Positions 1 to 32,739 are shown, counted from the first letter of the stretch. The stretch is 38,384 nucleotides of DNA from Candidatus Caldatribacteriota bacterium (GCA_034660595.1 JAYEJO010000093.1:1-38384), one strand, 5' to 3'. The notes: generated from the letters alone by a model not told the origin. A program made the numbers and translations.

Positions 1-798
1 ACCGGTATTTCCCTTGTCCCTGCGGTAGGAAAAGAAAAGTTCAGGGTGGTCTGCCGTACAAATCCGGTTAACAAAAATATTCTTTTCCGATAGCCCGGCT
101 TCAATCAATTGCCCATAGTTTGCTTTTCTTAAATCAAGGCTCCACCCGCTTTTATTTTGCAGGAAAATCGGTTCACCATTATGTTTAACTTCATTTAACC
201 AATAATCATCAATTTTATTTTCCTCTTTGATACTGTAACAGCAGGGACCGATGGAGGGAAAAATGGCAGCTAAGCAGGAGCAGGGATTGGTTTCAAAGAT
301 TTTTTTCATCTTTAACAAAGTTTTTAAGGTTAATTCCAATTCTGTTCCTCTTCTTCCACTATGGATTAACGCAATAGCTTTTTTGACAGGGTCTAAAATA
401 AAAACGGGAACGCAATCAGCATAACACATTAAAAGAGGTATACCGGGAATATCCGTAATTAATGCGTCGGTTTGTGCAATTCCCTTAGAATATTTTAAAG
501 CTCCTTTGCCTTTATCTTCTTTTTTTACGAGAGCTATTTTATCTTTATGGACTTGTTGAGCAGTTACCGCGGTTCGATAATCAATGCCTAAAGCATCTAA
601 AATAATTTTTCTGTTTTCTGCTACGCGACTTTCTTCATCGCCTACATTATAAGATAGATTAAGATTATTAAAGGGGGTTCTGCTTACACCGCCTGTTCGA
701 GCGGTAAAAGCATTTACTACTAAGTTGGCATTGTCTAATTCTCTACAGTTGAAATATTTTATTTGCCCAAGTTCTTTTAATTTAAAATCCTGGTTCAA
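1..798 (-). CDS. pgeF: YfiH/PgeF (DUF152) family protein (peptidoglycan editing factor / purine-nucleoside-phosphorylase-like); C-terminus cut by window edge
   Basis: Not in the ORF track because it runs off the window. My minus-strand translation from TTG at 798 reads LNQDFKLKELGQIKYFNCRELDNANLVVNAFTARTGGVSRTPFNNLNLSYNVGDEESRVAENRKIIL...IALIHSGRRGTE...ICTADHPELFFSYRRDKGNTG. These are the family motifs (FTxRxGGxS, NR, HSGxRG, C...FxSYRRD). TTG is the only plausible in-frame start after the upstream TAA, so the start is uncertain. Confidence 0.8.
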   Translation of the reverse strand, partial: MNQDFKLKELGQIKYFNCRELDNANLVVNAFTARTGGVSRTPFNNLNLSYNVGDEESRVAENRKIILDALGIDYRTAVTAQQVHKDKIALVKKEDKGKGALKYSKGIAQTDALITDIPGIPLLMCYADCVPVFILDPVKKAIALIHSGRRGTELELTLKTLLKMKKIFETNPCSCLAAIFPSIGPCCYSIKEENKIDDYWLNEVKHNGEPIFLQNKSGWSLDLRKANYGQLIEAGLSEKNIFVNRICTADHPELFFSYRRDKGNTG

Positions 799-844
799 AT
801 TATCTCTACTTTTTGATAATATTTTTTAATACTTACACTGTATC

Positions 845-886
845 AAAATAAAAAAGGGTAAGATACTTCAACGGAATTTCTTACCC
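845..886 (-). terminator. Rho-independent terminator forming the expression platform of the glycine riboswitch
   Basis: Minus strand reads GGGTAAGA-aattccgttgaagta-TCTTACCC followed by TTTTTTATTTT. The 5' arm overlaps the 3' P1 strand (AGGG) of aptamer 2, as in glycine-ON switches. Confidence 0.7.
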
Positions 887-895
887 TGTCTTTTT

Positions 896-1070
896 ACCTG
901 AGAGATTTTTCCAGAATATTGGAAATTACCCCTTCGGTGTTTATTGAAAAACTTTCCAGAGTTCTGTCCGGCAATGGTCCTTTTGCCTGAGAGTTTAAAT
1001 GTATCATACATCTTGCCCCTTCGGCTTCTTTTCTGTAATAGAAAAGACCTCTCCCATTGCTTTCATCCAG
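896..1070 (-). promoter_or_regulatory. Tandem glycine riboswitch (two aptamers)
   Basis: Aptamer 1 on the minus strand: GGGAGAG..hairpin..GCCGAAGGGGCAA..hairpin..CTCTCAGGCAAAAGGAC. Aptamer 2: CTCTGGAAAG..CACCGAAGGGGTAA..hairpin(tttcca/tggaaa)..CTCTCAGGTAAAAAGAC. These are the conserved glycine-aptamer cores in the usual tandem arrangement. Confidence 0.85.
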
Positions 1071-1144
1071 AATAAAATCTATTTGATTATGTTAATTTTG
1101 AGTAAAAACAATTTTGCATATTAAACATATTTAGATAAAAATTA

Positions 1145-1200
1145 TAAACTACATTCTCTATACGACATCTATTTAAAAAATCCTTCTTTTTTTTTGAAAA
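1145..1200 (-). repeat. ~55-nt upstream module, copy A (paralogue of 22146..22199)
   Basis: Minus strand reads TTTTCAAAAAAAAAGAAGGATTTTTTAAATAGATGTCGTATAGAGAATGTAGT. By hand alignment it matches the mraZ-upstream copy at roughly 46 of 56 positions. Confidence 0.6.
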
Positions 1201-1463: not shown

Positions 1464-2174
1464 TCATCTCCAATAACAATTGGGAACATATTTTTTAGCT
1501 TTTTCTGATAGTTCCTGAATCTTTTCATCAGAATAGGGTTTTATCTTTTGAAAAGAAGGGTCGAGGGTCTTCTCTAAAGGAGAAAAATTCTGTAATACAT
1601 ATTTTTTCGCTCCGGTAATATGCCTGGCAATTTCCATAATGGTCTCAACGGAATGCAATAAAGGTACTACGGTAGTGCGAAATTCATAATCAATCTTTGA
1701 GTTCATTATTAATTCAATACTATCTTTTACTTTCTCTAACATTATTTTATCTTTTATGCCCACGGCCTTGGAATAATTATCAAAATCCAATGATGATTTA
1801 ATATCCATGGCAATATAATCCACCAAAGCAAAATCAAGGAGATTTTCTAATAATTTCGGATTAGTACCATTAGTATCCAGCTTTATTAAAAAACCTTTAT
1901 CTTTTATTTCTTTAAAATATGCAGGTAAATCGGGGTATAGGGTGGGCTCTCCTCCGCTCATACATATACCATCAATAAAATCTTTTCTCTCTAAGAGGAA
2001 GTTATCTATTTTTCTCAGGGAAATGTTAGGAAAATTTTCCGGATGTAATATTAAATCACAATTATAGCAGAATGGACATCTAAAGTTACAGGCAGGAAGA
2101 TATAAAGTAGAAACAATTTTCCCCTCCCAATCAATCAGAGAGGTCTCAATCATCTGCTTTATGGTAATGTTCAA
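1464..2174 (-). CDS. nrdG: Anaerobic ribonucleoside-triphosphate reductase activating protein (radical SAM)
   Basis: 236 aa with CNFRCPFCYN (CxxxCxxC) near the N-terminus, directly downstream of nrdD. The track start is TTG, overlapping the upstream stop as TTGA. An ATG 21 nt downstream (2153) is an alternative start. Confidence 0.9.
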   Translation of the reverse strand: MNITIKQMIETSLIDWEGKIVSTLYLPACNFRCPFCYNCDLILHPENFPNISLRKIDNFLLERKDFIDGICMSGGEPTLYPDLPAYFKEIKDKGFLIKLDTNGTNPKLLENLLDFALVDYIAMDIKSSLDFDNYSKAVGIKDKIMLEKVKDSIELIMNSKIDYEFRTTVVPLLHSVETIMEIARHITGAKKYVLQNFSPLEKTLDPSFQKIKPYSDEKIQELSEKAKKYVPNCYWR

Positions 2175-2425
2175 ATTGCTGCTTCCTCTCTAATCTCCTC
2201 TAATCGAGGGGCATTTCCTCTCCATATCTTGATCTCGTTATCCTCATTATCTGCGATTACTATAGAAGGAGTAGATGCAATATTATAATAACTTGCTTCA
2301 GCCAGACCATCAACCGAATCTACATCAAAATATTGAACTTCTGCCTCTTTTTCTAATTGTTTTCCCAGATTTTTAGCTTCCGGACAATGGGGACAGTTTT
2401 TTTGCCAGAATATTTTTATTTTCAT
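2171..2425 (-). CDS. Small thioredoxin-fold / glutaredoxin-like protein (CPHC)
   Basis: 84 aa with WQKNCPHCPEAK as the redox motif. It sits between nrdD and nrdG, where glutaredoxin-like proteins are commonly found in class III nrd operons. Confidence 0.75.
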   Translation of the reverse strand: MKIKIFWQKNCPHCPEAKNLGKQLEKEAEVQYFDVDSVDGLAEASYYNIASTPSIVIADNEDNEIKIWRGNAPRLEEIREEAAI

Positions 2426-2442
2426 AATATTTTCACTCTCTT

Positions 2443-4869
2443 CTAAATTTTATTCGTTAGTTTATAATTTCCGGAATGCCGATCTTTTAGTTCGCCGATC
2501 TTATTTTTATTCCAATTGGTTATTTTGCTATAATATCCCACTATCCTGGTTACTCCATATACATCTTCGCTCCCGCATCCATTGCAGTTCTCTTGTAATC
2601 CTCTGCTAACCTCGTTGCAGACATTACATATGGTAAACTCAGGCGAAATAGTAAGTTGAGAACACTGAGTATGTTCCCAAACTTTTTTAACTAAATTATA
2701 GATGCTCTCCGGTGAAGGCCGGCTTTCTCCTACAAAGGCGTGAATTATCGCCCCGCTCTTTATTAAAGGATGGAACTTACTTTGTTTAATAATTCGAGTG
2801 ATTAAATCTACCGGTGCTGAAGCAGCAAAATGGATACTATTAGTATAATAACTTTCATCTCCATTGGAATTTCCTTTTACAACTTTTTTGCTATCCGGAA
2901 ATTCCCGTAAATCGATTTTAGCTAACCTTCCCGCTGCGCTTTCAGCGGGAGATTCCTCCAGAGACAATTTTAAATTGAACTTCTTGCTATACTCTCTGCA
3001 CTTTAAACTCATAAAGGATATAATTTTTAATCCCAACTTAAAAATATCTTCACCTTCATGTAGTTGTTTGCCGGTAATATGCTGGACTGCTTCGTTTAAC
3101 CCGATTAATCCTATTAAGTAAGTTCCTTCATCCAAATTTACATAAGGCCTGCCATCCAAGGCTATCTTGCCTATTTGCCATAAAGGTCCGCTGGGATCTT
3201 CCATCATTGTCTTTAAAAACTTTTTCTTCTGTAAATGGGCTTTGACTGCTAAACATAAAGCCTGATCGATTTTATGGAAAAATAACTTTAAATTATCTTC
3301 ATCATTAAAGTCGAGAGAGGATTCGTAAATATTATTGTCAGGGAAGGTCCTGTAGGCACATTGAGGGAGATTAATAGTAACATTCTGTATCCCGGCAAAT
3401 CTTAACTTCTCAGGATACTGTATCATTTCCTGATCAGTTATCTCGGTCTTTAATCGGCAGCAGGCAGCCAAATTTATATCGTCCCTATCAAAAATAAAAT
3501 AAGGTGAACCGTTCTCGGAAGCTATTTCACAGGCATATTTTAATAGTTTTTTCTGTTCAGGATCCTCGAAAGATTTACTATCAATGTGCAGATCCATCTT
3601 AGGAAAAGCAAAAACTTTTCCGTGGTAATCCCCTTCTCTCCAAACTTCCATCAAAGCTCTCAAAAATAGTTGGGATTCTTTTTCGTAATCTCCGTAATTT
3701 TTTCCGGTATACTCCCCCCCCGGTCCGATTGCCGGTATATTTTTAAGATAGTGCGGGATACCGAGGTGAACATTGAAATCCAGGAAAAGACTCTGTCCTC
3801 CTCTGGAAAAGGCGTTTTGCGAACCGCTAAATATTAAATATTGGGCTTCTTGTTTTATTTCTTTAAAAGGTAGATTTACCAAAAAAGGGGCATACATGAT
3901 ATTTAAATAACCAATACCTAAAGCGCCCGCATAATAGGCCTGCATAGAAGCCAAAAAAGTATTTAAATGCCCGGTTAAGGTTCTGGTATGCTTGGCCGGA
4001 GCGGAAGAGGTATCCAAATTTTCTAATTCAAGACCATATTTCTTTAGAAATTCGAGAGAATGACCGGAACAATAAATTCTCGGATAGCCCAAATCATGAA
4101 TATGAATCCATCCTTTTAAATGGGCATCAGCTACTTCTTTGGAAAAAACTTCTTGCAGCATATATTGTTTGATAGTATTTTCGGCAATGATCAAATTTAT
4201 AGCTTCCGGATTATTGGTTCCAATATTACTATTTTCTTTACTCTTGGAAAAAAACAGTTGTTTTAAATCAAAGGTAGGCATCCCGATAATCTTTTGCTTT
4301 CTCCACTTATGTTCATATCCTCTGGTAAACAGCTCATTGTCAACCAATTCTCTAATCAAGGAAGTGGAAATCTCACTCAAACTTAAATCGACTATCTTTT
4401 TTTCTACTGCCTTGGCTATCTTGGTAGAAACATTTAAAGGTAGTTCCGCTTCTTTAACCAAAGCTTGAATGATTTTCTGCCTATCCCAGGGGAAAACATT
4501 CTCAGAGGTTGGAGTGGAAACCAGCAGAGAAAGCTCAGTTGTGCTTCCATGGTTTTCTACTTTTTTTCTAACTTTTAAGTCCTCTCTAATCCTGCTCCTT
4601 TTATCCCGATACAAAATATAAGCTTTTGCAACTTTTACCAAACCTTCTCTAATTAAGACCTCTTCTACTATATCCTGCACTTCTTCTACATGCGGAACCA
4701 AATCCTTAAATCTTTTTTCTAATTTTATAACTACCTGTTCGGTCACTTTTTCTGCTATAGTTTTATTTTTTTCTCCTGAGGCTAACGTAGCAGCGAAAAT
4801 AGCTTCGTTTATCTTCTTTTTATCAAATTCTACTAATCGGCCTTCTCTTTTTTTGATGGTCTGTATCAT
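2443..4869 (-). CDS. nrdD: Anaerobic (class III) ribonucleoside-triphosphate reductase
   Basis: 808 aa with an N-terminal ATP-cone. The C-terminal Zn site is CNVCNEV...CNGCGS, followed by the glycyl-radical motif TRIVGYY. RBS is GAGG, 7 nt before the ATG. Confidence 0.95.
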   Translation of the reverse strand: MIQTIKKREGRLVEFDKKKINEAIFAATLASGEKNKTIAEKVTEQVVIKLEKRFKDLVPHVEEVQDIVEEVLIREGLVKVAKAYILYRDKRSRIREDLKVRKKVENHGSTTELSLLVSTPTSENVFPWDRQKIIQALVKEAELPLNVSTKIAKAVEKKIVDLSLSEISTSLIRELVDNELFTRGYEHKWRKQKIIGMPTFDLKQLFFSKSKENSNIGTNNPEAINLIIAENTIKQYMLQEVFSKEVADAHLKGWIHIHDLGYPRIYCSGHSLEFLKKYGLELENLDTSSAPAKHTRTLTGHLNTFLASMQAYYAGALGIGYLNIMYAPFLVNLPFKEIKQEAQYLIFSGSQNAFSRGGQSLFLDFNVHLGIPHYLKNIPAIGPGGEYTGKNYGDYEKESQLFLRALMEVWREGDYHGKVFAFPKMDLHIDSKSFEDPEQKKLLKYACEIASENGSPYFIFDRDDINLAACCRLKTEITDQEMIQYPEKLRFAGIQNVTINLPQCAYRTFPDNNIYESSLDFNDEDNLKLFFHKIDQALCLAVKAHLQKKKFLKTMMEDPSGPLWQIGKIALDGRPYVNLDEGTYLIGLIGLNEAVQHITGKQLHEGEDIFKLGLKIISFMSLKCREYSKKFNLKLSLEESPAESAAGRLAKIDLREFPDSKKVVKGNSNGDESYYTNSIHFAASAPVDLITRIIKQSKFHPLIKSGAIIHAFVGESRPSPESIYNLVKKVWEHTQCSQLTISPEFTICNVCNEVSRGLQENCNGCGSEDVYGVTRIVGYYSKITNWNKNKIGELKDRHSGNYKLTNKI

Positions 4870-4902
4870 TTTGAAACCTCATTATAAAATATATTTGTTA
4901 AT

Positions 4903-4937
4903 TAGTCGCTAGTGAATAGTCGTTAGTCGTTAGTATT
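4903..4937. repeat. 7-nt-periodic array, class 4 (TAGTCGT units)
   Basis: tagtcgc|tagtgaa|tagtcgt|tagtcgt|tagtatt, in the nrdR-nrdD spacer. Confidence 0.8.
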
Positions 4938-4950
4938 AAATACAAGTTCT

Positions 4951-5042
4951 CAGTTGCCAGATAAAAAGTTAGTTGCTACAGTTAACCATCCTGATATTAA
5001 TTCTTCAACCGGGTAACCGGTAAACTGGCTAACTGGCTAACC
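4951..5042. repeat. Inverted pair of class-3 (GGTTAAC/CTGGCTAA) 7-8-nt arrays
   Basis: 4951..4987 reads cagttgccag..agttagttgctacagttaacc. 5009..5042 reads ccgggtaaccggtaaactggctaactggctaacc. The arms are imperfectly complementary. Confidence 0.6.
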
Positions 5043-5109
5043 ATCTTTACGAGATATGAATCAGGCTCCTGCAGAAAAAAGAAATTCCTATACAATTAAA
5101 TAATCTATT

Positions 5110-5559
5110 TTATTTGCTAATCCTTCTTATCTCTTTTACAAAGCTGCTTAGATCCTTAAATTGCCTATATACCGAGGCAAATCTTACATAAGCTACTTCA
5201 TCTAAATCTCGTAATCTGGAGATAACCAATTCTCCGATTAGACTACTCTTAATTTCATTAACTCCTTCACTTTTTATGGTCTCTTCTATGTTGTTTACTA
5301 AATTATTTATAGTCTCTATGCTAATCGGTCTTTTTTCGCAGGCTTTAATAATGCCGTTGGTAATCTTTTCTCGAGAAAAAGGTTCCCTCCGACCATCTTT
5401 TTTTATTACCATCAGGGGAATTAAATCAATTCTTTCGTAAGTAGTGAATCTTTTATTACATTTTTTACAAATTCTTCTTCTTCTGACTACTAATTCATTT
5501 TCTATGTGCCTGGATTCAATTACCCTGGTATCGTAATAACTACAATAAGGACATTTCAT
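5110..5559 (-). CDS. nrdR: Transcriptional repressor NrdR (Zn-ribbon + ATP-cone)
   Basis: 149 aa beginning MKCPYCSYYDTRVIESR...CKKCNKRFTTYER, followed by an ATP-cone. Confidence 0.95.
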   Translation of the reverse strand: MKCPYCSYYDTRVIESRHIENELVVRRRRICKKCNKRFTTYERIDLIPLMVIKKDGRREPFSREKITNGIIKACEKRPISIETINNLVNNIEETIKSEGVNEIKSSLIGELVISRLRDLDEVAYVRFASVYRQFKDLSSFVKEIRRISK

Positions 5560-5590
5560 TTTGCACCCCTAAATACAGGATCACATTTAT

Positions 5591-5619
5591 AGTATTACAC
5601 CATATATAGGAAATGTCAA
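5591..5619 (-). promoter_or_regulatory. Candidate sigma70-type promoter of nrdR, with a possible NrdR-box half-match in the spacer
   Basis: Minus strand reads TTGACA-17 nt-(TGt)AATACT. The spacer tttCCTATATATGGTGT matches the ACACwATATaTwGTGT NrdR-box consensus at about 11-12 of 16 positions, mainly in the right half. Confidence 0.4.
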
Positions 5620-5640
5620 TATAAATTGTTAAAAATATTT

Positions 5641-5692
5641 AAAAAAATAAGACAGGTGTCCCCCGTTTTCACGAGGGCAGGCCCGCCCTGTC
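5641..5692 (-). terminator. Second structured hairpin plus T-run downstream of ftsZ
   Basis: Minus strand reads GACAGGgcgggcctgccctcgtgaaaacgggggacaCCTGTC followed by TTATTTTTTT. The interior contains the palindrome AGGGCGGGCCTGCCCT. Confidence 0.5.
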
Positions 5693-5700
5693 TGTGAATT

Positions 5701-5734
5701 ATAAAAAGAAGGGCACAATTCATTGTGCCCCTAC
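5701..5734 (-). terminator. ftsZ terminator, which is also a REP-like hairpin copy
   Basis: Minus strand reads GTAGGGGCACAAT-GA-ATTGTGCCC followed by TTCTTTTTA. The 25-nt core is identical to 27634..27658 in the opposite orientation. Confidence 0.65.
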
Positions 5735-5791
5735 ACTTAAATCCCGTTCTCTTTAACTCGATACTAGTTATTCTGTACGTCTACGCTATCT

Positions 5792-6850
5792 TTATTTTTT
5801 CTCCCTTAAAAAGGTGGGTATATCTAAATCGTTATAACTTATCTTATCTTTATCGAAATCAATCTCCTCAAGTTTGGGTTCTTCTGAAATTTTCTCTAAG
5901 GTTTCAAATCCCGTAGCTATCACAGTTACCTTTACTTCATCATTTAATCCTTTGCTAATTACCGCTCCAAAGATAATATTTGCTTCCGGATTAGCTGCCT
6001 TGGAAATTATTTCAGCAGCTCTATTAACTTCATGCAAGGTTAAACTTGAACTCCCGCTAATATTAAACAACAACCCTTTAGCTCCATCGATTTTTGTATT
6101 TAAAATTGGACTGTTTACAGCTCTTTGAGCTGCTTCAATAGCACGGTTTTCACCACTGGCTCTTCCTAATCCCATTATAGCTGTACCGGCATTTTCTATA
6201 ATCATTTTTACATCCGCAAAATCTACATTTATTAAACCCGGCTCGACTACAATTTCGGTAATTCCCTGAATGCCATGTAGCAGAACCTCATCAGCAATTT
6301 TGAAAGCATCCAATACAGAAGTATTTTCCTCAACAATCTGAAGTAATCTATCGTTAGGTATTACAATTAAAGTATCTACACATTCTTTTAATAATTTTAT
6401 TCCTTCCTCAGCCTGCCTCATCCTTTTATGACCTTCAAAAGAAAAGGGCTTAGTCACTACTCCCACCGTTAAGGCACCCAGGTCTTTAGATATCCGGGCA
6501 ACAATAGGTGCGCCACCGGTTCCCGTTCCGCCCCCCATTCCAGCGGTGATAAATACCATATCTGCACCTTTTAAAGCTTTGGTAACCCTTTCTTTGTCTT
6601 CTTCCGCCGCTTTACGGCCAATTTCAGGATTCGATCCACTACCTAAACCCTTGGTTATCTTACTGCCAATTTGTATTTTTTGTTCTGCATTAGAAAAGGC
6701 TAACACTTGAGCATCAGTATTTACGGAAATATAATTAACGCCTTGTAATTTTGCATCAATCATTCTATTAACAGCATTCCCGCCGCCGCCGCCTATACCG
6801 ATTACTTTTATCTCGATAAATTCTCCTACTTTATTATTAAGGTTAAACAA
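5792..6850 (-). CDS. ftsZ: Cell division GTPase FtsZ
   Basis: Contains [17 protein letters not shown] and [13 protein letters not shown]. The track ORF starts at TTG 6868. I prefer the TTG at 6850, which has a GGGAGG RBS 7 nt upstream. Confidence 0.95.
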
Positions 6851-6906
6851 TTTATAACCTCCCTGCAAATAATGGAATATTTACCTATTTAAAGGCAATA
6901 AAAAAA

Positions 6907-9135: not shown

Positions 9136-9229
9136 TACTATATACTCGATACTATCTTATTCGGACTACTGATTTCTTTTCTGTCTTTTCTTAACCAGTT
9201 AACCAAGTAACCAATTAACCGGTTAACTA
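9136..9229. repeat. Class-2 (CGATACT) then class-3 (TTAACCA) periodic arrays
   Basis: 9136..9173 reads tactatatactcgatactatcttattcggactactgat and shares the 17-nt actatatactcgatact with the reverse complement of 22841..22871. 9191..9229 reads ttaaccagttaaccaagtaaccaattaaccggttaacta. Confidence 0.75.
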
Positions 9230-9254
9230 ATTCTTAGTGATACGTTATACGAAA

Positions 9255-11575: not shown

Positions 11576-11596
11576 TAAATATAATTCCACCTTTAT

Positions 11597-11623
11597 CTCG
11601 TATTGCGTATCGCGTATCGCGTT
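11597..11623. repeat. Class-2 heptamer array (CGTATCG), left arm of an inverted pair
   Basis: ctcgtattgcgtatcgcgtatcgcgtt. It is about 22/26 complementary to 11807..11832. Confidence 0.8.
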
Positions 11624-11806: not shown

Positions 11807-11832
11807 AACGCGATACGCAATACGCGATACTA
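11807..11832. repeat. Class-2 heptamer array (CGATACG), right arm of an inverted pair
   Basis: gaacgcgatacgcaatacgcgatact. A 183-nt AT-rich core lies between the arms. Confidence 0.8.
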
Positions 11833-14144: not shown

Positions 14145-14232
14145 TAGTTAGTTGGTTAACTGGTTATTTGGTTAAATAGTTTAAAACGAAATCTTCAACT
14201 AATTAACCAAGTAACCAACTAACTAGCTAACG
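14145..14232. repeat. ~35-bp imperfect hairpin built from class-3 7-8-nt units
   Basis: The left arm is tagttagttggttaactggttatttggttaaatag. The right arm is caactaattaaccaagtaaccaactaactagctaacg. The outer 14 bp pair perfectly and the loop is about 16 nt. The hairpin fills the mraY-ftsW spacer. Confidence 0.8.
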
Positions 14233-18109: not shown

Positions 18110-18134
18110 AAAAAATACCTCTGAATTATAAATA

Positions 18135-18160
18135 GTGTATAGCGTATAGCGTATAGTATG
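18135..18160. repeat. Class-1 heptamer array
   Basis: gtgtatagcgtatagcgtatagtatg, immediately upstream of the murE RBS. Confidence 0.8.
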
Positions 18161-18199
18161 AAAGATAAGATGTTTGTCCTCCAGTTAAATTCCGTATAT

Positions 18200-18228
18200 A
18201 GTATATCTTATTGCCTATTGTGATTCAA
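18200..18228 (-). promoter_or_regulatory. Candidate sigma70-type promoter for murE-murF-mraY
   Basis: Minus strand reads TTGAAT-17 nt-TATACT, about 90 nt upstream of the murE ATG. Confidence 0.4.
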
Positions 18229-18279
18229 TGTGTGTCAGGAGCGATCCTTTTACACGGTTTGACCAACTAAAAACTTAAA

Positions 18280-18309
18280 GTGTATAGCGTACAGCGTTTA
18301 GCGTATAGG
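18280..18309. repeat. Class-1 heptamer array
   Basis: gtgtatAGCGTACAGCGTTTAGCGTATAGg. A 23-nt stretch is identical to 27548..27570. Confidence 0.85.
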
Positions 18310-18412
18310 AAAAAATACTCTGTACAACATTTTTTTTCTTATCTTTTTTTATTGCTCATATCTTTTGTCATGGCTATGAAAATGGAAATCCGTCTTTTTT
18401 TATCTTCTAACA

Positions 18413-18440
18413 CTGGATTCCCACTTTCGTGGAAATGACA
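18413..18440. repeat. REP-like hairpin ATTCCCAC-TTTC-GTGGAAAT
   Basis: ctggATTCCCACtttcGTGGAAATgac. The leading ctggattc recurs at 9107..9114. Confidence 0.5.
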
Positions 18441-18482
18441 GAGGAAAATTGGCTTTTGTATTTCGTCTTCTTCTTTCTCTAA

Positions 18483-18515
18483 CTCTACGCTCTACGCTGT
18501 ACGCTCCACGCTATC
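18483..18515. repeat. Class-1 heptamer array, inverted orientation
   Basis: ctctacgct|ctacgct|gtacgct|ccacgct|atc. It is complementary in class to 18280..18309. Confidence 0.85.
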
Positions 18516-18530
18516 TGCTTTTTTCCTTCG

Positions 18531-18560
18531 CGCGATACTCGATACTCGATACACGATACT
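18531..18560. repeat. Class-2 heptamer array (CGATACT)
   Basis: cgcgatact|cgatact|cgataca|cgatact. It overlaps the first two bases of the ftsI stop codon (18559..18561). Confidence 0.85.
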
Positions 18561-22390: not shown

Positions 22391-22405
22391 ATATCTATCT
22401 ATTTT

Positions 22406-22780
22406 GATAAGTAGATCGTATAAGCCGAGTTCTGTCCCTTTATAAATTCATAAAGGTGGTAATCATCTATCTGGGACGTAAGTTACCTTACGCCTCTTGC
22501 GACCTACCCGAAGATTCAGCGGGCCACCACAGCTCTTCCTATTTGGTCTTGCTCCGAGCGGGGTTTACTAAGCTTGTTAGTCACCTAACAACTGGTAGGC
22601 TCTTACCCTGCCTTTTCACCTTTACCGAAAACACTCAAATTGAGTGCCCGGCTGTGTATTTTCTGTAGCACTTTCCTTAAGGTTACCCTCACTGGGGGTT
22701 ACCCAGCGCTCTGCCCTGTGGAGCTCGGACTTTCCTCGAAAGAAATAGTATTTCTTCCGCGATTACCTGATCTACTTATC
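22406..22780 (-). ncRNA. rnpB: RNase P RNA, bacterial type A
   Basis: Minus strand contains GAGGAAAGTCCGAGCTCCACAGGGCAG, GGTAAAGGTGAAAAGGCAGGGTAAGAGCCTACC, GGAGCAAGACCAAATAGG and ACAGAACTCGGCTTATA. P1 is formed by GATAAGTAGATC and its complement at the two ends. Confidence 0.93.
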
Positions 22781-22830: not shown

Positions 22831-22840
22831 TTCTTAAAAT

Positions 22841-22871
22841 AGTATCGAGTATATAGTATTGAGTATCGAGC
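22841..22871. repeat. Class-2 heptamer array (AGTATCG orientation)
   Basis: agtatcg|agtatat|agtattg|agtatcg|agc. Confidence 0.8.
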
Positions 22872-23858: not shown

Positions 23859-23934
23859 TGGTGGGCCCACCTGGATTCGAACCAGGGACCGACCGGTTAT
23901 GAGCCGGTTGCTCTGCCAGCTGAGCTATGGGCCC
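23859..23934 (-). tRNA. tRNA with anticodon CAT (elongator Met type; Ile2/lysidine identity not excluded), CCA encoded
   Basis: I folded the cloverleaf by hand: GGGCCCA ta GCTC agctggca GAGC a ACCGG CTCATAA CCGGT cggtc CCTGG ttcgaat CCAGG TGGGCCC a CCA. G1-C72 is paired, so it is not an initiator. Confidence 0.93.
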
Positions 23935-23995: not shown

Positions 23996-24054
23996 TCGTA
24001 TCTCGTATAGAATTAGTTAGCTAGTTAGTTGGTTACCTGGTTAGCCAGTTAAGG
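23996..24054. repeat. Class-2 (TCGTATC) then class-3 (TAGTTAG/GGTTA) arrays
   Basis: ttcgtatctcgtatag..ttagttagctagttagttggttacctggttagccagttaagg. 24017..24044 matches the reverse complement of 14204..14231 at about 27 of 28 positions. Confidence 0.85.
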
Positions 24055-27537: not shown

Positions 27538-27570
27538 TTTAGCGTAGAGCGTACAGCGTTTAGCGTATAG
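27538..27570. repeat. Class-1 heptamer array, left arm of a foldback
   Basis: tttAGCGTAGAGCGTACAGCGTTTAGCGTATAG. Confidence 0.85.
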
Positions 27571-27633
27571 AAATACAATAGTATATTATAAATAATTTTA
27601 TAGTAATTTTGGAATTGTTGGTTATAATTAGAT

Positions 27634-27710
27634 GTAGGGGCACAATGAATTGTGCCCTCCCCATATTGTTACTTAAAATCTCTTGAGGGCACGATGCATC
27701 GTGCTCCTAC
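27634..27710. repeat. Pair of REP-like hairpins (GTAGGGGCAC...GTGCCC / GAGGGCAC...GTGCTCCTAC)
   Basis: 27634..27658 reads GTAGGGGCACAATGAATTGTGCCCT, the exact reverse complement of 5710..5734. 27685..27710 reads GAGGGCACGATGCATCGTGCTCCTAC. The two hairpins are mutually inverted. Confidence 0.8.
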
Positions 27711-27784
27711 ATTATAATACTTCTTTTATTCTTTCTTCTTTTTGCCTAACGAGCTAACTATTTCTATACTATATACTAATTTTC

Positions 27785-27816
27785 CTATACGCTACACGCT
27801 AAACGCTATCCGCTAT
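27785..27816. repeat. Class-1 heptamer array, right arm of a foldback; overlaps the stop codon and last codons of the megaprotein ORF
   Basis: ctatacgctacacgctaaacgctatccgctat. Its reverse complement matches 1266..1297 at 30 of 32 positions. Confidence 0.85.
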
Positions 27817-30800
27817 TTTTCTTCTGTCTGCTATCCCTTTGGTACGCCGTAAAAGTTCAAGGCTATTTCCTAAATAATGAGAAGGACTAAGATTTAAATT
27901 ATACTCCATATCTTCTCCCTGGTCAGGATATCGGGGATAAATAATTACTTCTCCCAAATGATCAAGTGTCAATTTCCTTTGTTGAATTACCTGGTATTCA
28001 TTTTCCAGAGCTTCTATTATAGTTAAGGCATTTTCAATACAAACTTCGGAAAAATTATAGACGGTTTTTGCAGAAACATTTTTAATAAATGAAGGGAAAG
28101 TATAGGGTAGTATCTGATTAACAGATCTAACTAAATTTCCCTGAGTCCTTATTTTTCTCTTTAATGCGTCTCCGCCAATAAAGGGATACAATTCACTTTC
28201 ATTAAACCAAAGCCTGAGATTGGGAATAAAATGGGCACAATCAACATCTCTATTTAATATAGTTGCTATCTCTTTTCCACTACCGGATAGTGCTCCTACA
28301 ATTATTTTTTTGATTTTAATATCATATTCTTTAAATAGGGGCTCAAGGGTCTTTATTCTATGCCCTTTATGTAAATAGTCATCAATAAGAATTACGGGCA
28401 TATCAAATGAATGAATCACCTTAACCTGATTTTCCAGGCTCATATAATTGGGGAAGGCATCAATCTCAAAACTTCTCATATCGGAAGCAAATATTTTTTC
28501 CGTATGGAGAGATTTAGTTACCGTGTTAGGTACTACCATCTTATGTAGTATCTTCCCAAAGGGCACACACATTGACTTTCCTAAAGTTCGAGGGGTTAAC
28601 GGCGTTGTGGAAACATTATTTATCTTACAAATTTTCTTTACAATAGTCTGGTTGATTAAATTTATATTAAATGGTAAAACAACATTCCCGGGATAAAAAG
28701 TAGTAAGTGATCTTAATAATCGTTTACGGGATACTATAACTGATTTTTTGATGTTTAAATTTTGGCAGAAAGGTTCTTTTATTATAGTCTCGGTATCCAG
28801 ATTGACTATACAGGGTTTACTCATATCCACTACAAATACCGGATTATCTTTATCGCTGAAAGGTAAGCGATAAAACCCCGTAAGTTCTAAATTCTCGTTT
28901 AAAGAAGTCAAAGGGTAATCATTTAATATGTTCCTGAATATTGCATAATCATAATCTTTCTCTATACAGAAAGACAAGGTTTCGGTAAGAATAGCCTGCT
29001 CAAGATTTTCAAGTCCTGATCCATTTTCCATATCACTTACGGTAAAAATACCATCAATAACTATAGTACGGCCAACTGAATTTTCCCGGATATACTCAGA
29101 TATTAAATTATCCTTAAACTCCTGGAAAAGAATGTTTGAACGAACCCAATGAAAGGCTGAAAACCCTAATATCTTTCCATTATGGCGGACATCACGTAAC
29201 AGTAGAATTCTCGGGTTTAATTTACGAGTAAACTCAAGCAATTTTTTGGATGCTTTATTTTGATTATATTTAGAAAGTACTTTCTGACAAAGTTCTTTTA
29301 TTAAATTCGGGATAATATCTTCAATTACCTGCACATCAGTAGAGATAGTCTGTATTATACTCTTATATTGTGGCTCTCTCTGGTATAAACTATTTTCATA
29401 AATATATTTTTGGGCTAAAGGGTCGATAAGTCTGGAAATATCTCTATTTTCATCAATATTATTTCTTATCTGAGTTGAACTTATTTCTTCATAACAAGGT
29501 GTAAGATTAAGTCTTATCATCTCTCCCTTTATTTCTTTAATAGCTTCTTGAATCCTTTCTTCTTTCTCATCTGCAATATGTGGGGTTTTTCTATCAAAAA
29601 TAATATGAGAAAAAGTATGTATGAAATTTTTTCTTTTATTTTTTTGGTAAGCTGAAGCATTTAATACAACATCACTGCCTACTACAATGTAAACCTCGGA
29701 AAAGGGGAAATTTTCTCTCAAAGTCTTTAAATCATCCGGATTGGCAATATTAACCGGTAAATCTTCAGGATATAAATATACATTAAGTTCATCGGCAATA
29801 GAAATATTTATTATATTCTTTCTGAAGAGGTGTGGTTGAGTTCTTTTAGACCAGGAAAATTCATCAACTGCTAAATATATTTCAAATCCGAGTATTTCTA
29901 TTGCTTTTATAATCTCTTTATGGCTTAAGGAAAATGGGTCAAAAGCTCCTGGGAAGAAAGCTATTTTGTCTGGGATTTCAAGGTTTATGCTCCCCTTGAA
30001 AAAATTGTAATCAGAGATAAATTTATACATATATTTAAGCCCAATACAATTTATTAAAAACATCAGGCCTTCTTTATTTACAGGAGCCAACAGTGTAAGA
30101 ATTTTTTTAGCAATAAGTTTAAATATATGGTTTTTCTCTTCTAAGCTGAGATGTCTTGAACCAAATATTTCCTTACCAATAACTCTAAATGCTGCCTGTT
30201 TCACCTTTAAATTATAGTGTACAAAGCCATTCAAAAGAATACCAATCATCTTGCTAAGCCTGTTTTCATATGATTTCTCTTCTTCTGAAAATCTTTCCCG
30301 GTACTTAGGGTAATTAGCAATGGCTATACCGATGGTTCTAAGAAGTAATGAGCTTAATTTGGGATCTGATTGTTTGATTTTTTCTATTAAATCATCAACA
30401 AGTTCCTCTAACTCATTAGGTCTAAGATAGAGTATTAATTGACCCAAATAGTAAGGAATATATTTAGTAAACTGATAATCTTCCATTTCTAAAGCCCGTA
30501 ATAGTTCAATGGCTATATCATTCCTCTGTTGAAAAGATAAGGAAGGCATTAAATTTACAAGAGCTTTACCGGCCAAATTTCTAATATCTTCTATGCCGCT
30601 AACTTTCAAAATATTACAAAAATGCAAAGCAGTGTAGATTTCTTCCTGCTTGCTCTTTAGGGTATGTTCTAATAAAAGTTCTATCTGGATTTTTTTAATT
30701 ATTCCACTGGTTGAAGTTTTAAGGTTACTTAGAAATATATACTGTATCTTTTCTATATCCCTTCGATAAAATTCGATATACTTCTTTACGATACTTTCGT

Positions 30801-32739
30801 CCAAATTTAATAATTCAACTATCTTCATATTTAAATAATTTTCGGCAGGGAACTCTGAGGCAGAAATATTACCAGTAAATATTTTTCTTAAGTTATTTAT
30901 AAATCTAAAATTTTTATCAATTCGAGGCGTTAAATCATAGACTACCTCTAAAGCAGTAAGTCTAAGTTTAGGATTCTCCTTCTTTAACATTTTTATAATA
31001 TAATCAAATAATACCTTTACGGATTTTTCATCTGAGCAGATTGATACATGTTTGGCGGTTTTTATCAAACACAGTTGGATTTCGTCATTGGTATACAGGT
31101 GCTTTTTATAGTGTTTTAAAATACTTTTTCTGTAATTGCTTACCTGATGATTATTGCGACAGTTAGAAAAAAGAGAAGAAATCATATTCTCAGTACTATC
31201 AATAATTCGAGATTGATGAAAAGCAATCTTTTTATGGTCCGGCTGTAAAAAATATTTTAAATATCTTTCCAATAAATTAACACTGGTAATCGCGGGAGGT
31301 TTTAGGGTAACGTTCTGAGGAATCTCTTTGCGGTAATCTTCGTCAAAACTGGCAATTAATAAACCGATAAGTTTTGCGCTCCTCCTTCTTATTTCATCTT
31401 CCGGATGAGTTAACTGTTCGTATAAATATCTCAGGGTAATCATCTTCTGTTTTTGAGTCAAGTAGGCAGAATACTCATTGAATATTTGTAGATATTCCCG
31501 TAGATTGTTCCAATCTTTTTCACTTCGAGCTAATTCCAAAAGTGAATTAAGAGAAGACTCATCTCGAAGTTCGTGCATTAAATTTATATTATGTTCTATG
31601 GAAAGAAATTTTATATTCTGGATAACTTCCTGGCCCTGCATGAGAGGATAATACGGTTTTCTATCTTTCTTATAAGGACTTATCCCTTCCTTCTCTACAT
31701 CTACATTTACCCCTAAATTTATCATATAATCTTCAAAGTCTTTTAATTTCTCGTAAACTCGGCAATATCTTTTTCTTTTTTCCTCATCAACATTATCCAG
31801 TTTGTCTAAAATTACTTGAAAAGAATCTTTCAGGCTAAAAATTCTCATCTCCTCTTTGGGCCCGTTAATAATATTTTTAACCCGAAAATCAGAATAAATT
31901 AATATAAGTGATTCTAAAGGTAAATTTTCTAATTCTAAATCCCAAACAGAATGATTAACTGCAATATGTCCGATATAAGGGATATTATGTTTTTTAAACC
32001 ACATATCGGTATAGTAATAATGTAAATGGGGAGTTCTTTCTACCTCAATGTCCTTGCATCCATATTTTCCGATATCATGCCCTGCTGCTGCTCCCGAAAT
32101 CCTCCCCAAATCCACGGGAAGACCCAGATTATATAACTGCCTGCCGATAAACAAAGCAATCCAATTTACCCCGCATATATGGTCTAAAGTATTGAACTTT
32201 AAAATTTCCTGGCTTAATTTCATCATCTCATAGATATATTCATCATTAAATGCTTTTAAAAATCTTTTATATTCAGCAGGGTTCTCCAGTTTGCTTTTTT
32301 CGTCAAAAGTTAAAAAATTAAGGGGATATTTGCCGTGAAAAGTAGAATCACCGGACGACTTTTGGAACTTCAAAATTACTCTTAAAAATTCTAAATAGAG
32401 TAAGAAAGCTTTTCGGCAATCAGGGGAGATATCCTTAACAGATAGATCTACTGTTTCGGGAAAAGATTTATATAGGGTAAATTGATAAACCTTATAAAGC
32501 CAGTTAGAGGAATTATGTTTTTTGTCTATATTAACAAGCAAGTCTTTACACAAAGAATATACTGCCTGACAGGTGTAATTTTTATTTTCTACCATAGATG
32601 ATAATTGTTTTAAAAATAGAGGATTTTCGATATATTTTCTAACCAACTCTTTATCTAAAGAAATATTATCCAATATCTGTGTGTGTAAAATCTTTTTAGA
32701 TATTTTTTTATATAATTCTTTAACCGTAGTTTTGCTCAT
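27799..32739 (-). CDS. 1,646-aa multidomain protein of unknown function: HD phosphohydrolase + helical repeats + NadD/NMNAT-like nucleotidyltransferase + GNAT-like + PRTase-like
   Basis: Single uninterrupted ORF with an ATG start and an AGGATGG RBS.
- HD domain: LDHICG...GAAAGHDIGKYG...YSDF (aa ~187-285).
- NadD-like domain: FFPGAFDPFSLSH (aa 928-940) and EEISSTQIRNNIDENRDISRLIDPLAQKYIYENSLY (aa ~1084-1119).
- PRTase-like domain: MPVILIDDYLHKGHRIKTL (aa ~1447-1465).
That this is a real CDS is well supported; the product call is motif-level only. Confidence 0.85.
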   Translation of the reverse strand: MSKTTVKELYKKISKKILHTQILDNISLDKELVRKYIENPLFLKQLSSMVENKNYTCQAVYSLCKDLLVNIDKKHNSSNWLYKVYQFTLYKSFPETVDLSVKDISPDCRKAFLLYLEFLRVILKFQKSSGDSTFHGKYPLNFLTFDEKSKLENPAEYKRFLKAFNDEYIYEMMKLSQEILKFNTLDHICGVNWIALFIGRQLYNLGLPVDLGRISGAAAGHDIGKYGCKDIEVERTPHLHYYYTDMWFKKHNIPYIGHIAVNHSVWDLELENLPLESLILIYSDFRVKNIINGPKEEMRIFSLKDSFQVILDKLDNVDEEKRKRYCRVYEKLKDFEDYMINLGVNVDVEKEGISPYKKDRKPYYPLMQGQEVIQNIKFLSIEHNINLMHELRDESSLNSLLELARSEKDWNNLREYLQIFNEYSAYLTQKQKMITLRYLYEQLTHPEDEIRRRSAKLIGLLIASFDEDYRKEIPQNVTLKPPAITSVNLLERYLKYFLQPDHKKIAFHQSRIIDSTENMISSLFSNCRNNHQVSNYRKSILKHYKKHLYTNDEIQLCLIKTAKHVSICSDEKSVKVLFDYIIKMLKKENPKLRLTALEVVYDLTPRIDKNFRFINNLRKIFTGNISASEFPAENYLNMKIVELLNLDESIVKKYIEFYRRDIEKIQYIFLSNLKTSTSGIIKKIQIELLLEHTLKSKQEEIYTALHFCNILKVSGIEDIRNLAGKALVNLMPSLSFQQRNDIAIELLRALEMEDYQFTKYIPYYLGQLILYLRPNELEELVDDLIEKIKQSDPKLSSLLLRTIGIAIANYPKYRERFSEEEKSYENRLSKMIGILLNGFVHYNLKVKQAAFRVIGKEIFGSRHLSLEEKNHIFKLIAKKILTLLAPVNKEGLMFLINCIGLKYMYKFISDYNFFKGSINLEIPDKIAFFPGAFDPFSLSHKEIIKAIEILGFEIYLAVDEFSWSKRTQPHLFRKNIINISIADELNVYLYPEDLPVNIANPDDLKTLRENFPFSEVYIVVGSDVVLNASAYQKNKRKNFIHTFSHIIFDRKTPHIADEKEERIQEAIKEIKGEMIRLNLTPCYEEISSTQIRNNIDENRDISRLIDPLAQKYIYENSLYQREPQYKSIIQTISTDVQVIEDIIPNLIKELCQKVLSKYNQNKASKKLLEFTRKLNPRILLLRDVRHNGKILGFSAFHWVRSNILFQEFKDNLISEYIRENSVGRTIVIDGIFTVSDMENGSGLENLEQAILTETLSFCIEKDYDYAIFRNILNDYPLTSLNENLELTGFYRLPFSDKDNPVFVVDMSKPCIVNLDTETIIKEPFCQNLNIKKSVIVSRKRLLRSLTTFYPGNVVLPFNINLINQTIVKKICKINNVSTTPLTPRTLGKSMCVPFGKILHKMVVPNTVTKSLHTEKIFASDMRSFEIDAFPNYMSLENQVKVIHSFDMPVILIDDYLHKGHRIKTLEPLFKEYDIKIKKIIVGALSGSGKEIATILNRDVDCAHFIPNLRLWFNESELYPFIGGDALKRKIRTQGNLVRSVNQILPYTFPSFIKNVSAKTVYNFSEVCIENALTIIEALENEYQVIQQRKLTLDHLGEVIIYPRYPDQGEDMEYNLNLSPSHYLGNSLELLRRTKGIADRRKIADSV

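Follow-up and report, generated by a model that had tools for sequence, protein, structure and literature searches.

Why would a glycine riboswitch stand directly upstream of a gene for the peptidoglycan editing factor PgeF? The question is raised by a 38,384-nucleotide (nt) stretch of DNA from Candidatus Caldatribacteriota bacterium (GCA_034660595.1 JAYEJO010000093.1:1-38384), an uncultured sediment bacterium (Atribacterota); the whole of this stretch is called the window here. An original prediction, made by a model from the sequence alone, had read a tandem glycine riboswitch ahead of a gene of the DUF152/YfiH family in its first 1,070 nt, and had proposed that glycine induces an enzyme that removes glycine from peptidoglycan precursors. 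Following up this proposal computationally, we consider it likely that a glycine-ON riboswitch controls a string of genes led by pgeF in a response to glycine, and that this riboswitch is a duplicate of the one that serves the glycine cleavage (gcv) genes of the same lineage.

MurC misligates glycine and serine onto UDP-MurNAc, and the PgeF homologues of E. coli, S. enterica, B. subtilis and G. stearothermophilus cleave Ser/Gly, not Ala, from the precursors; pgeF mutants fed glycine make Gly-containing muropeptides (PMC12280929). As to whether the expression of PgeF is under control, the same 2025 paper says that this "remains to be seen" (PMC12280929). Glycine ON switches elsewhere serve detoxification via glycine cleavage (PMC6944388; PMC12452182). 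The original prediction knew of no circuit that joins the two subjects, and our full-text literature search agrees with it: no relevant paper linked a riboswitch with yfiH, pgeF, DUF152 or ylmD, and none linked a glycine riboswitch with sarcosine-oxidase-like or proline-dehydrogenase-like genes.

Results

Two glycine aptamers and a competing terminator precede pgeF

All riboswitch and pgeF elements of the window lie on the minus strand (Table 1), and positions 1070..845 read as a canonical tandem glycine riboswitch of the transcription-termination ON type, with predicted glycine binding. The Rfam covariance model RF00504 matched aptamer 1 along the full model (1-94) with 65.7 bits (E 1.3e-11, 1066..965) and aptamer 2, when searched alone, with 48.5 bits (E 9.7e-10, 962..883). 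Both are significant scores above the gathering score of 32, as expected from the original prediction of a tandem; in the wider Rfam scan, aptamer 2 had been hidden by clan competition. Every conserved core element is present in aptamer 1 (GGAGAG; CCGAAGGxGCAA; CUCAGGCAAAAGGAC). In aptamer 2 (GGAAAG, ACCGAAGGGGUAA, CUCAGGUAAAAAGAC) the single J1/2 deviation from the consensus GGAGAG is probably tolerated, since GGAAAG is also fixed in the gcv-operon paralogue described below. Aptamer 2 is nearly identical in the relatives L019, L023 and L026 (loci outside the window carry L numbers), where it scores 58.4, 59.3 and 45.5 bits against RF00504. The cores were correctly placed by the original reading, which ran from 896 to 1070, and its boundary needs correction only in that P1 of aptamer 2 really closes at 884.

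In E-value mode the clan winner was a different family, RF03166 (glycine-GGAnGA), which is the only tandem model in Rfam. It aligns end to end (1070..882, E 1.2e-19), including P0 and the kink-turn, with the leader and linker sequence CUG-GAUGA ... CGGA-CAG. We rejected a filing under RF03166: its score of 90.8 bits, like the 91.9 bits in the relative L009, stays under the gathering score of 110, and it matches only because it is the tandem-length model of the clan. With RF03166 under its own threshold and both aptamers passing RF00504, the element is therefore assigned to the canonical RF00504 tandems and not to the GGAnGA variant.

Downstream of the aptamers, AGGGUAAGA (887..879) pairs with UCUUACCCU (863..855) around a 15-nt loop, followed by a U6-A-U4 tract that ends at 845. 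The folding energy of this hairpin is -14.3 kcal/mol (z = -3.5), and 0/200 shuffles were equally stable. In the ligand-free minimum free energy structure of the whole leader the terminator forms, and both aptamers are reproduced too. The sequence AGGG at 887..884 is common to the 5' arm of the terminator and to the 3' strand of aptamer-2 P1 (CAGGG, 888..884), and this shared AGGG makes a ligand-stabilized P1 and the terminator mutually exclusive. The overlap had been noticed in the original prediction, and a terminator that competes with P1 is the standard glycine-ON transcription-termination design, suggesting the same function here. A simple terminator scan missed this hairpin because of the 15-nt loop, and its own call, a 5-bp linker hairpin at 971..956, is not a terminator.

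The first gene encodes a predicted PgeF of the YlmD type

The TTG start at 798 lies 46 nt past the U-tract, exactly the distance originally given for a DUF152/YfiH gene; L020 has ATG at this position. The 3' part of the spacer is kept even in riboswitch-less relatives. The product scored 231.5 bits against PF02578 (cutoff 22.9) and 160.9 bits against the NCBIfam model TIGR00726, "peptidoglycan editing factor PgeF" (cutoff 141.15), so the first gene is pgeF by profile, and the claim that the target is neither a gcv gene nor a transporter was borne out. Full-length homologues have 275 amino acids (aa) and 79-93% identity; the named ones come from metagenome-assembled genomes of Atribacterota / "Candidatus Caldatribacteriota", and a GTDB scan added "Ca. 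Sediminicultor" species. Among solved structures the best matches are 6DZD (163 bits) and, at 143 bits, YlmD in 1T8H and 6T0Y. The motifs QVHKD, YADCVP and HSGRRG align with QTHED, FADCVP and HAGWKG of 6DZD, and likewise with the corresponding blocks of YlmD 6T0Y. We take these to be the His, Cys and His active-site blocks, assigning the catalytic residues from what is known of the family. The enterobacterial YfiH equivalog NF007998 ("purine nucleoside phosphorylase YfiH") was not reached (84.7 bits, cutoff 369), suggesting that the protein is of the YlmD/Firmicute-like type and not of the E. coli subtype, with its activity predicted accordingly from the family.

Conservation and covariation of the riboswitch

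In 39 distinct copies of the pgeF-linked riboswitch, standard pairs fill 99.1% of aptamer cells and 99.7% of terminator cells. Aptamer 2 is paired in 99-100% of cells, and all three pairs of P0 are 100% paired in the sets of 39 and 38 sequences. Pair variation among the 39 copies is mostly of the G-U wobble type (G-C or A-U to G-U), and the terminator holds one AU-to-GC compensatory pair. When pgeF-type and gcv-type paralogues were combined, 98.1% of cells were paired, and 10 compensatory pairs were counted across the paralogues against 2.3 +/- 0.9 in column shuffles (0/500 reach 10); compensatory changes between paralogues affect 5/7 pairs of aptamer-1 P1. Slid alignments, used as controls, were 33-53% paired. 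Covariation support is moderate in depth because the sequences are closely related.

The riboswitch is also the most conserved segment of the locus, which together with the kept pairing points to selection acting on the RNA. Its mean pairwise identity is 93.4%, compared with 76.7% for the 110 nt upstream, 82.6% for the 46-nt spacer and 84.1% for the first 600 nt of pgeF. These are whole-segment identities only; MAFFT gaps make codon-position identities unreliable.

A labile association within one phylum

We examined 16 Atribacterota species representatives (GTDB) together with metagenomic contigs found by a 20-mer scan. In this survey, of a kind that the original prediction had suggested as a check, the riboswitch precedes pgeF in related genomes, at the same distance in eight of the 16 species (Table 1). 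The scan with an aptamer-2 20-mer returned 120 stretches, 56 of them with the riboswitch ahead of pgeF and two of them chance matches. In 52/54 automatically classified pgeF-linked contigs, the pgeF start lies at +143 to +147 from the aptamer-2 marker. The riboswitch was always directly 5' of pgeF in the loci examined. Outside the phylum, a core-motif search of 64 non-Atribacterota pgeF loci (mostly Verrucomicrobiota; also Bacillota and Negativicutes) found no glycine aptamer, nor did Rfam in 19 of them. The association is thus real and is conserved across some lineages of a single phylum, but it is labile in evolution and does not hold generally.

Several relatives show how the element varies. 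The aptamer-1 core is mutated in L019:1733-1970, L023:5729-5966, L108 and L136 (GGGAGAG to GGAAGAU or GGGAAAU; CCGAAGG to CCAAGGG). A ghost-like aptamer-1 stem stands beside an intact aptamer 2 and terminator in L026:5746-6023 and L131. In L020:5840-6000 both aptamers are gone, and the upstream micro-repeats and the terminator U-tract are kept as a deletion scar; in L018:2140-2400 the leader-upstream motif is fused straight to pgeF codon 5, and in L012:1180-1231 only ~50 nt separate nrdG and pgeF.

A paralogous riboswitch ahead of glycine cleavage genes

In 50/120 metagenomic stretches a similar tandem riboswitch lies ahead of a 565-aa formate-tetrahydrofolate ligase (FTHFS, 864 bits), and in four more it lies ahead of gcvH (148 bits). 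The unit in L135:848-8816 has its own terminator and reads riboswitch-fhs-gcvH-gcvPA-gcvPB-gcvT, followed by an apparent alanine/glycine:cation symporter, where gcvP, gcvT and the symporter are named from size, order and N-terminal sequence and not from a profile search. The fhs-type riboswitch was also seen in L098, L109, L112, L118 and ~50 metagenomic loci. To our knowledge, glycine-riboswitch operons that begin with fhs are not often cited.

Over the tandem aptamer region (~190 nt) the two types resemble each other closely, long stretches being identical, and pgeF-type and fhs/gcv-type leaders (e.g. L107, L112) have in common the motif AAAAAAAAGAAGGATTTTT(A/T)TAAAT, ~110-130 nt 5' of P0. 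They differ in aptamer-1 P1, GCAAUGG/CCAUUGC in the pgeF type and GUAGGGG/CCCUUAC in the gcv type, a compensatory difference; in the gcv type P3b of aptamer 2 is often longer and the terminator stem is unrelated (GACAGAGCAGAAAUA...). Because of the similarity of the aptamer region and the shared upstream motif, the pgeF riboswitch appears to be a duplicate of the lineage's gcv riboswitch, copied with its presumed promoter region, or else the copying went in the reverse direction.

Related riboswitches were seen in other contexts: ~560 nt upstream of a peptidase C69 (dipeptidase) gene in L093:721-1410 and L195, upstream of an fhs remnant and then an M20 peptidase gene in L166 and L211, and ahead of a gene for a DegT-family aminotransferase followed by gcvPA-gcvPB-like genes in L110:431-3000. 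A large insertion in aptamer-2 P3b is present in L093/L195 and L110.

A flavoenzyme cluster follows pgeF in relatives

What lies downstream of pgeF was taken from contigs that encode PgeF homologues with 79-93% identity, as the cluster falls outside the window. An attempt to extend the left edge of the window by looking up identical NrdG proteins returned only contigs of 2.4-2.6 kb, all ending at nrdG. A five-gene SoxA/SoxB-like cluster (Table 1) follows pgeF, and its order is kept in 16/16 Atribacterota species representatives; a Liv-type amino-acid ABC transporter usually comes next. According to Pfam, the relatives hold the complete set of subunits and domains of the heteromeric SoxAB / archaeal L-proline dehydrogenase / HcnABC type. 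SoxA is split over cluster proteins 1, 2 and 4, which match three consecutive segments of TIGR01372, and the split SoxA has no folate-binding C-terminal domain. The DAO protein finds its best solved relative in 1Y56_B, the beta subunit of Pyrococcus horikoshii L-proline dehydrogenase (292 bits), with heterotetrameric sarcosine oxidase beta, dimethylglycine dehydrogenase and glycine oxidase behind it; the cluster also has a match to 1Y56_A (82.8 bits). None of the substrate-defined subfamily cutoffs tried was reached (soxB, TIGR01373, 219 of 529 bits; soxA 172 of 1164; glycine oxidase ThiO 133 of 251; D-amino acid dehydrogenase 105 of 383). Heteromeric dehydrogenases of the DAO superfamily include HCN synthase, which oxidizes glycine (PMC4575208).

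The gap between pgeF and fer2 bears on whether the cluster belongs to the transcript. Seven of the 16 species, three of them with the riboswitch (L015, L023, L026), have a gap of 11-45 nt; in the riboswitch-less L022 and L025 it is 11 nt. The next gene follows pgeF after 25-44 nt in the riboswitch-bearing L026, L023, L097 and L128. In the other nine species the gap measures ~50-300 nt where it is measurable (L020 ends at pgeF). A gap of 11-45 nt leaves no space for a promoter or terminator, and co-transcription of pgeF with the flavoenzyme genes is very likely in several lineages and plausible in the window's own, so that the regulated unit is probably a six-gene operon. In the longer gaps no canonical terminator was seen. 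They hold G+C-rich hairpin repeats without U-tracts, heptamer micro-repeats and a promoter-like element, TTGCAA-18-TAGTAA, and an Rfam E-value scan of L009 for a second RNA element between pgeF and the flavoenzyme genes returned only noise.

The G+C-rich perfect hairpins (GGGCACGAUGCAUCGUGCCC; GGGCACAAUUCAUUGUGCCC; GGGCAGACCUUGUGUCUGCCC), all without U-tracts, recur in intergenic spacers of AT-rich relatives and explain much of the variation in pgeF-fer2 spacer length. They look like REP-like or mobile elements.

Promoter candidates and genomic neighborhood

Two stretches upstream of the riboswitch could provide its promoter, a function that we infer from their sequence only. In the larger one (1141..1196), the 16-mer AAAAAGAAGGATTTTT occurs a single time in the 38-kb window (1191..1176), and TATAAT was found at 1146..1141 by reading the sequence; a consensus promoter scan called no site at 1141..1196. 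The A-rich motif AAAAAAAAGAAGGATTTTT(A/T)TAAAT(A/T)GA(T/C)G (1176-1196, minus strand), also present as a single copy in the window, could be a dedicated promoter, an UP element or a protein-binding site that adds a second layer of control. The alternative candidate at 1118..1127 is the sole upstream block retained in L013/L134, where the upstream motif is deleted and the riboswitch is intact.

The synteny ftsZ-nrdR-nrdD-grx-nrdG-[riboswitch]-pgeF is kept across relatives (tblastn, window included). In the window, a thioredoxin-like gene sits with nrdG, nrdD and nrdR 5' of pgeF; relatives also show FtsA, FtsZ and a POTRA (FtsQ-like) gene. Further window open reading frames (ORFs) resemble a complete division/cell-wall (dcw) cluster from mraZ to ftsZ, with names given from ORF order and size only. 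Thus pgeF lies at the distal end of the dcw cluster, as ylmD does in Firmicutes.

The module nrdR-nrdD-thioredoxin-like-nrdG (window 2171-6868, minus strand) is inserted between ftsZ and pgeF, and the order nrdR-nrdD...pgeF is also found in the Negativicutes locus L028 and the Bacillota locus L029. In L025:2050-3525, nrdD is split by a coding insert of ~1.5 kb that looks in-frame, a probable intein that neither the window nor other relatives have. What had looked like insertions into nrdD, nrdG and soxA' of L004 are scaffold N-runs. Elsewhere on the minus strand of the window we noted a class A bacterial RNase P RNA (309.6 bits, 22404-22778), a tRNA with a CAU anticodon loop (70.9 bits, 23862-23934) and a 1646-aa ORF (27799-32739). 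Short tandem arrays, with 4-5 copies of unrelated 7-8-nt units (TCGTATC, TATAGCG, AATTGGAA, TTAGTCG, AACCGGCT, TTAACCAA, TATCGCG, CTCTACG, CGATACT and others), occupy many apparently intergenic stretches of the window, and comparable arrays occur in intergenic spacers of relatives.

Table 1. Coordinates of features in the window and in related loci
Feature	Location	Strand	Comment
P0 leader strand and kink-turn (CUG-GAUGAA)	1061..1070	-	Pairs with linker CAG 966..964; aligned in RF03166
Glycine aptamer 1	965..1066	-	P1 is 1060..1054 with 977..971; cores GGAGAG, CCGAAGGGGCAA, CUCAGGCAAAAGGAC
Glycine aptamer 2	883..962	-	P1 is CUCUG 961..957 with CAGGG 888..884; J1/2 GGAAAG
Intrinsic terminator (expression platform)	845..887	-	9-bp stem 887..879 with 863..855, then UUUUUUAUUUU
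46-nt spacer, terminator to pgeF	799..844	-	Weak Shine-Dalgarno-like AGUAGAGA
pgeF (YfiH/YlmD/DUF152)	1..798	-	TTG start 798; window edge cuts after codon 266 of 275
Leader-upstream motif AAAAAAAAGAAGGATTTTTTAAAT-AGATGTCG...TATAAT	1141..1196	-	Putative promoter region of the riboswitch transcript
Alternative promoter candidate, extended -10-like TGTTTAATAT	1118..1127	-	Relatives: TGtTATACT or TGtTATAAT
nrdG (anaerobic ribonucleotide reductase activase)	1464..2174	-	Radical_SAM 70.8 bits; context, outside the regulated unit
fer2, 101-aa 2Fe-2S protein	First after pgeF, relatives		Fer2_4 117.7 bits
soxA', 366-aa FAD protein, SoxA-like	Second after pgeF, relatives		Pyr_redox_2 127.8 bits
fer4, 165-aa 4Fe-4S protein	Third after pgeF, relatives
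A3, 90-aa SO_alpha_A3/Fer2_BFD protein	Fourth after pgeF, relatives		SO_alpha_A3 68.2 bits
soxB', 384-aa DAO-family protein, SoxB-like	Fifth after pgeF, relatives		DAO 246.9 bits
Intact tandem ahead of pgeF	L013, L015, L016, L017, L027
Tandem with aptamer-1 core substitutions	L019, L023		L019 GGAAGAU; L023 GGGAAAU and CCAAGGG
Aptamer 2 and terminator only	L026		Degenerate ghost-like aptamer 1; 69% PgeF identity
Riboswitch absent	L012, L020, L021, L022, L024, L025
Uninformative loci	L014, L018		L014 N-run; L018 leader joined to codon 5 (deletion or misassembly)
G+C-rich hairpins	L009:8870-8950; L212:5205-5270; L003:7925-7955; L021 and L024		In L021 and L024 right after nrdG
Short tandem arrays	1232-1262, 1266-1299, 1421-1450, 4902-4934, 5007-5042, 9191-9232, 11594-11622
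Short tandem arrays, continued	11808-11830, 14153-14231, 18132-18560, 22839-22870, 24014-24051, 27541-27816

Discussion

What is new at this locus is the target, pgeF; the RNA is a regular member of RF00504 and mechanistically standard. In the mechanism that we propose, a promoter ~45-125 nt upstream would start the leader RNA. When glycine is scarce, the 9-bp hairpin of the terminator (887..855) would form with its U-tract, and the transcript would end at ~845. With glycine in the aptamers, aptamer-2 P1 (961..957 with 888..884) would be stabilized and the terminator-seeding AGGG sequestered, whereupon RNA polymerase would read through into pgeF and probably into the flavoenzyme genes too. High glycine would then induce an amidase, PgeF, that strips MurC-misligated glycine or serine off UDP-MurNAc precursors, and would also induce a heteromeric amine dehydrogenase from the family of sarcosine oxidase, archaeal proline dehydrogenase and HCN synthase, with glycine itself as a possible substrate. 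What the analysis shows directly is the identity of the aptamers and genes, the overlap of the terminator with P1, the conserved and covarying pairs, the gene order and the paralogy. From these we infer that glycine is bound, that polymerase reads through, that the downstream cluster is co-transcribed and what the response is for. We prefer to read the system as a two-arm response to excess glycine, with proofreading and oxidation as its arms, that complements the gcv operon under the sister riboswitch. Tentatively, and with more doubt than assurance, this could be extended to JS1-type Atribacterota as a two-branch glycine-excess regulon derived from one duplicated riboswitch, comprising an fhs-gcvHPT branch for glycine cleavage and C1 oxidation and a damage-control branch, in which PgeF would edit precursors that contain glycine, and an oxygen-independent iron-sulfur flavoenzyme of the SoxAB/HcnABC-like kind, not characterized before, would oxidize glycine.

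The switch resembles the B. subtilis-type gcvT tandem (RF00504) in its two aptamers, P0 and kink-turn, cores and a terminator that competes with aptamer-2 P1, but differs in its first gene, pgeF instead of gcvT/gcvP or a transporter, and in the GGAAAG of aptamer-2 J1/2. With the Atribacterota fhs-gcv riboswitch (e.g. L135) it has in common a very high aptamer identity, the upstream AAAAAAAAGAAGGATTTTT motif and the ON terminator logic, whereas that riboswitch has its own aptamer-1 P1, an often longer P3b, another terminator and a classical glycine-cleavage/C1 target. In GCV ON switches aptamer 1 is the better conserved one (Crum et al., PMC6944388); the pgeF clade shows the reverse trend, with aptamer 2 kept and aptamer 1 decaying (L019, L023, L026). 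L026 and L131 fit the tandem-to-singlet decay described for type-2 singlets with a ghost aptamer (Ruff et al. 2016, PMC5066625), whereas the copy in the window is still a full tandem. The protein is like E. coli PgeF/YfiH and the YlmD of B. subtilis and G. stearothermophilus in family, motif blocks and location at the dcw end downstream of ftsZ, but here a glycine sensor lies 5' of pgeF and the gene stands in a string with a flavoenzyme cluster, whereas for those systems control of pgeF by a metabolite has not been described (PMC12280929). That cluster shares Fer2_4, Pyr_redox_2, SO_alpha_A3/Fer2_BFD, DAO and 4Fe-4S components with heteromeric DAO dehydrogenases (1Y56, SoxAB, HcnABC, opine and D-hydroxyproline dehydrogenases), from which it differs in a SoxA split into three small genes that lacks the folate-binding C-terminal domain.

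Several points weigh against glycine control of the pgeF-led string. Ligand binding, termination and read-through are all predicted, and J1/2 of aptamer 2 is GGAAAG where the consensus has GGAGAG. Six of the 16 species keep the same genes without the riboswitch, showing that its control is dispensable. A promoter-like TTGATA-17-AATATT lies between the terminator and pgeF (846..818), a match within chance expectation (2 sites found, 4.0 expected). The flavoenzyme cluster is not inside the window itself, and the pgeF-fer2 spacer is long in the window's closest relatives, 187 nt in L009 and 230 nt in L212, the closest relative with downstream DNA (91% PgeF identity). A separate promoter in this spacer may serve the flavoenzyme genes, either alongside the riboswitch-controlled one or in its place.

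The flavoenzyme cluster gives as good a reason for glycine control as pgeF does. It is possible, though we find it unlikely, that pgeF is a passenger, co-induced as the first gene under a riboswitch that was selected to make the SoxA/SoxB-like dehydrogenase glycine-inducible. The string pgeF-fer2-soxA'-fer4-A3-soxB' occurs with or without the riboswitch, known glycine ON switches govern glycine catabolism (PMC6944388; PMC12452182), and the DAO subunit is related to sarcosine oxidase beta, ThiO and 1Y56_B, in a family that includes the glycine-using HCN synthase (PMC4575208). However, the riboswitch is never found between pgeF and fer2, though this spacer tolerates insertions of 25-308 nt, and it is PgeF that has a direct published biochemical tie to glycine (PMC12280929); no flavoenzyme subunit reaches a curated family cutoff, and in the window's sub-lineage the coupling to the flavoenzyme is the less certain link. 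Conversely, control could be confined to pgeF, with the flavoenzyme cluster of the window's lineage served by its own promoter in the 190-300-nt spacer, which we regard as rather improbable. Spacers with TTGCAA-18-TAGTAA, two strong hairpins and a TATAAT-like box near the fer2 start (L009, L212, L006, L105) speak for it, as does a strong ribosome-binding site of fer2 itself (GGGAGGAAGGU). Yet nothing obviously halts read-through, since the spacer hairpins are without U-tracts; the gap is just 25-44 nt in several other riboswitch-bearing lineages, and Rfam finds no known RNA element in the spacer.

That the element is a decaying, selectively neutral duplicate of no regulatory importance seems very unlikely to us. 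Such a recent copy of the gcv riboswitch, inserted by chance ahead of pgeF and now being lost, would fit the patchy distribution (6/16 species without it), the deletion scars in L020 and L018, the aptamer-1 core mutations in L019, L023, L108 and L136 and the ghost-like aptamer 1 in L026 and L131. Against such decay, both aptamers and the terminator are intact in the window, 39 distinct copies hold 99% of pairs and are more conserved than flanks and coding sequence, and even in the most divergent relative (69% PgeF identity) the element persists, its aptamer 2 and terminator still in place; moreover, a singlet with a ghost aptamer is a known function-preserving route (PMC5066625, PMC6944388). 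The link to purines that the original prediction offered as an alternative, in which the YfiH protein would be a purine nucleoside phosphorylase or adenosine deaminase and purine salvage would be tuned by glycine as a precursor of purines, found no support and is to our minds extremely improbable. Passages in the literature report purine nucleoside enzyme activities for the family (PMC6978800; PMC12280929), and PDB homologues carry the name "purine nucleoside phosphorylase". The protein nevertheless falls far below the NF007998 cutoff while passing that of the PgeF equivalog, its gene, as is the case for ylmD, comes last in the dcw/mur cluster, no purine gene was present among the neighboring genes examined, and the paralogous riboswitch operon is one of glycine cleavage and not of purine synthesis.

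The significance of a glycine-controlled pgeF string is limited by the want of an experimental handle on the organism, by the patchy distribution and by the confounding downstream cluster. The leader of roughly 350 nt (window ~1200..799) nevertheless makes a concrete, testable construct. The link to the riboswitch also flags the flavoenzyme cluster as a candidate anaerobic dehydrogenase for glycine or a glycine derivative, and the locus would be a clean natural case of regulon expansion, in which a riboswitch was duplicated with its promoter region and later decayed from tandem to singlet, or was lost, in sister lineages.

In conclusion, a glycine sensor apparently wired to pgeF in a deep-branching uncultured phylum is a first hint that PgeF is regulated, and this wiring supports glycine load as the relevant stress. 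If the two-branch regulon is true, it would be the first metabolite-regulated peptidoglycan proofreading, and the comparison of genomes would add independent evidence for glycine misincorporation as a real selective pressure in natural settings.

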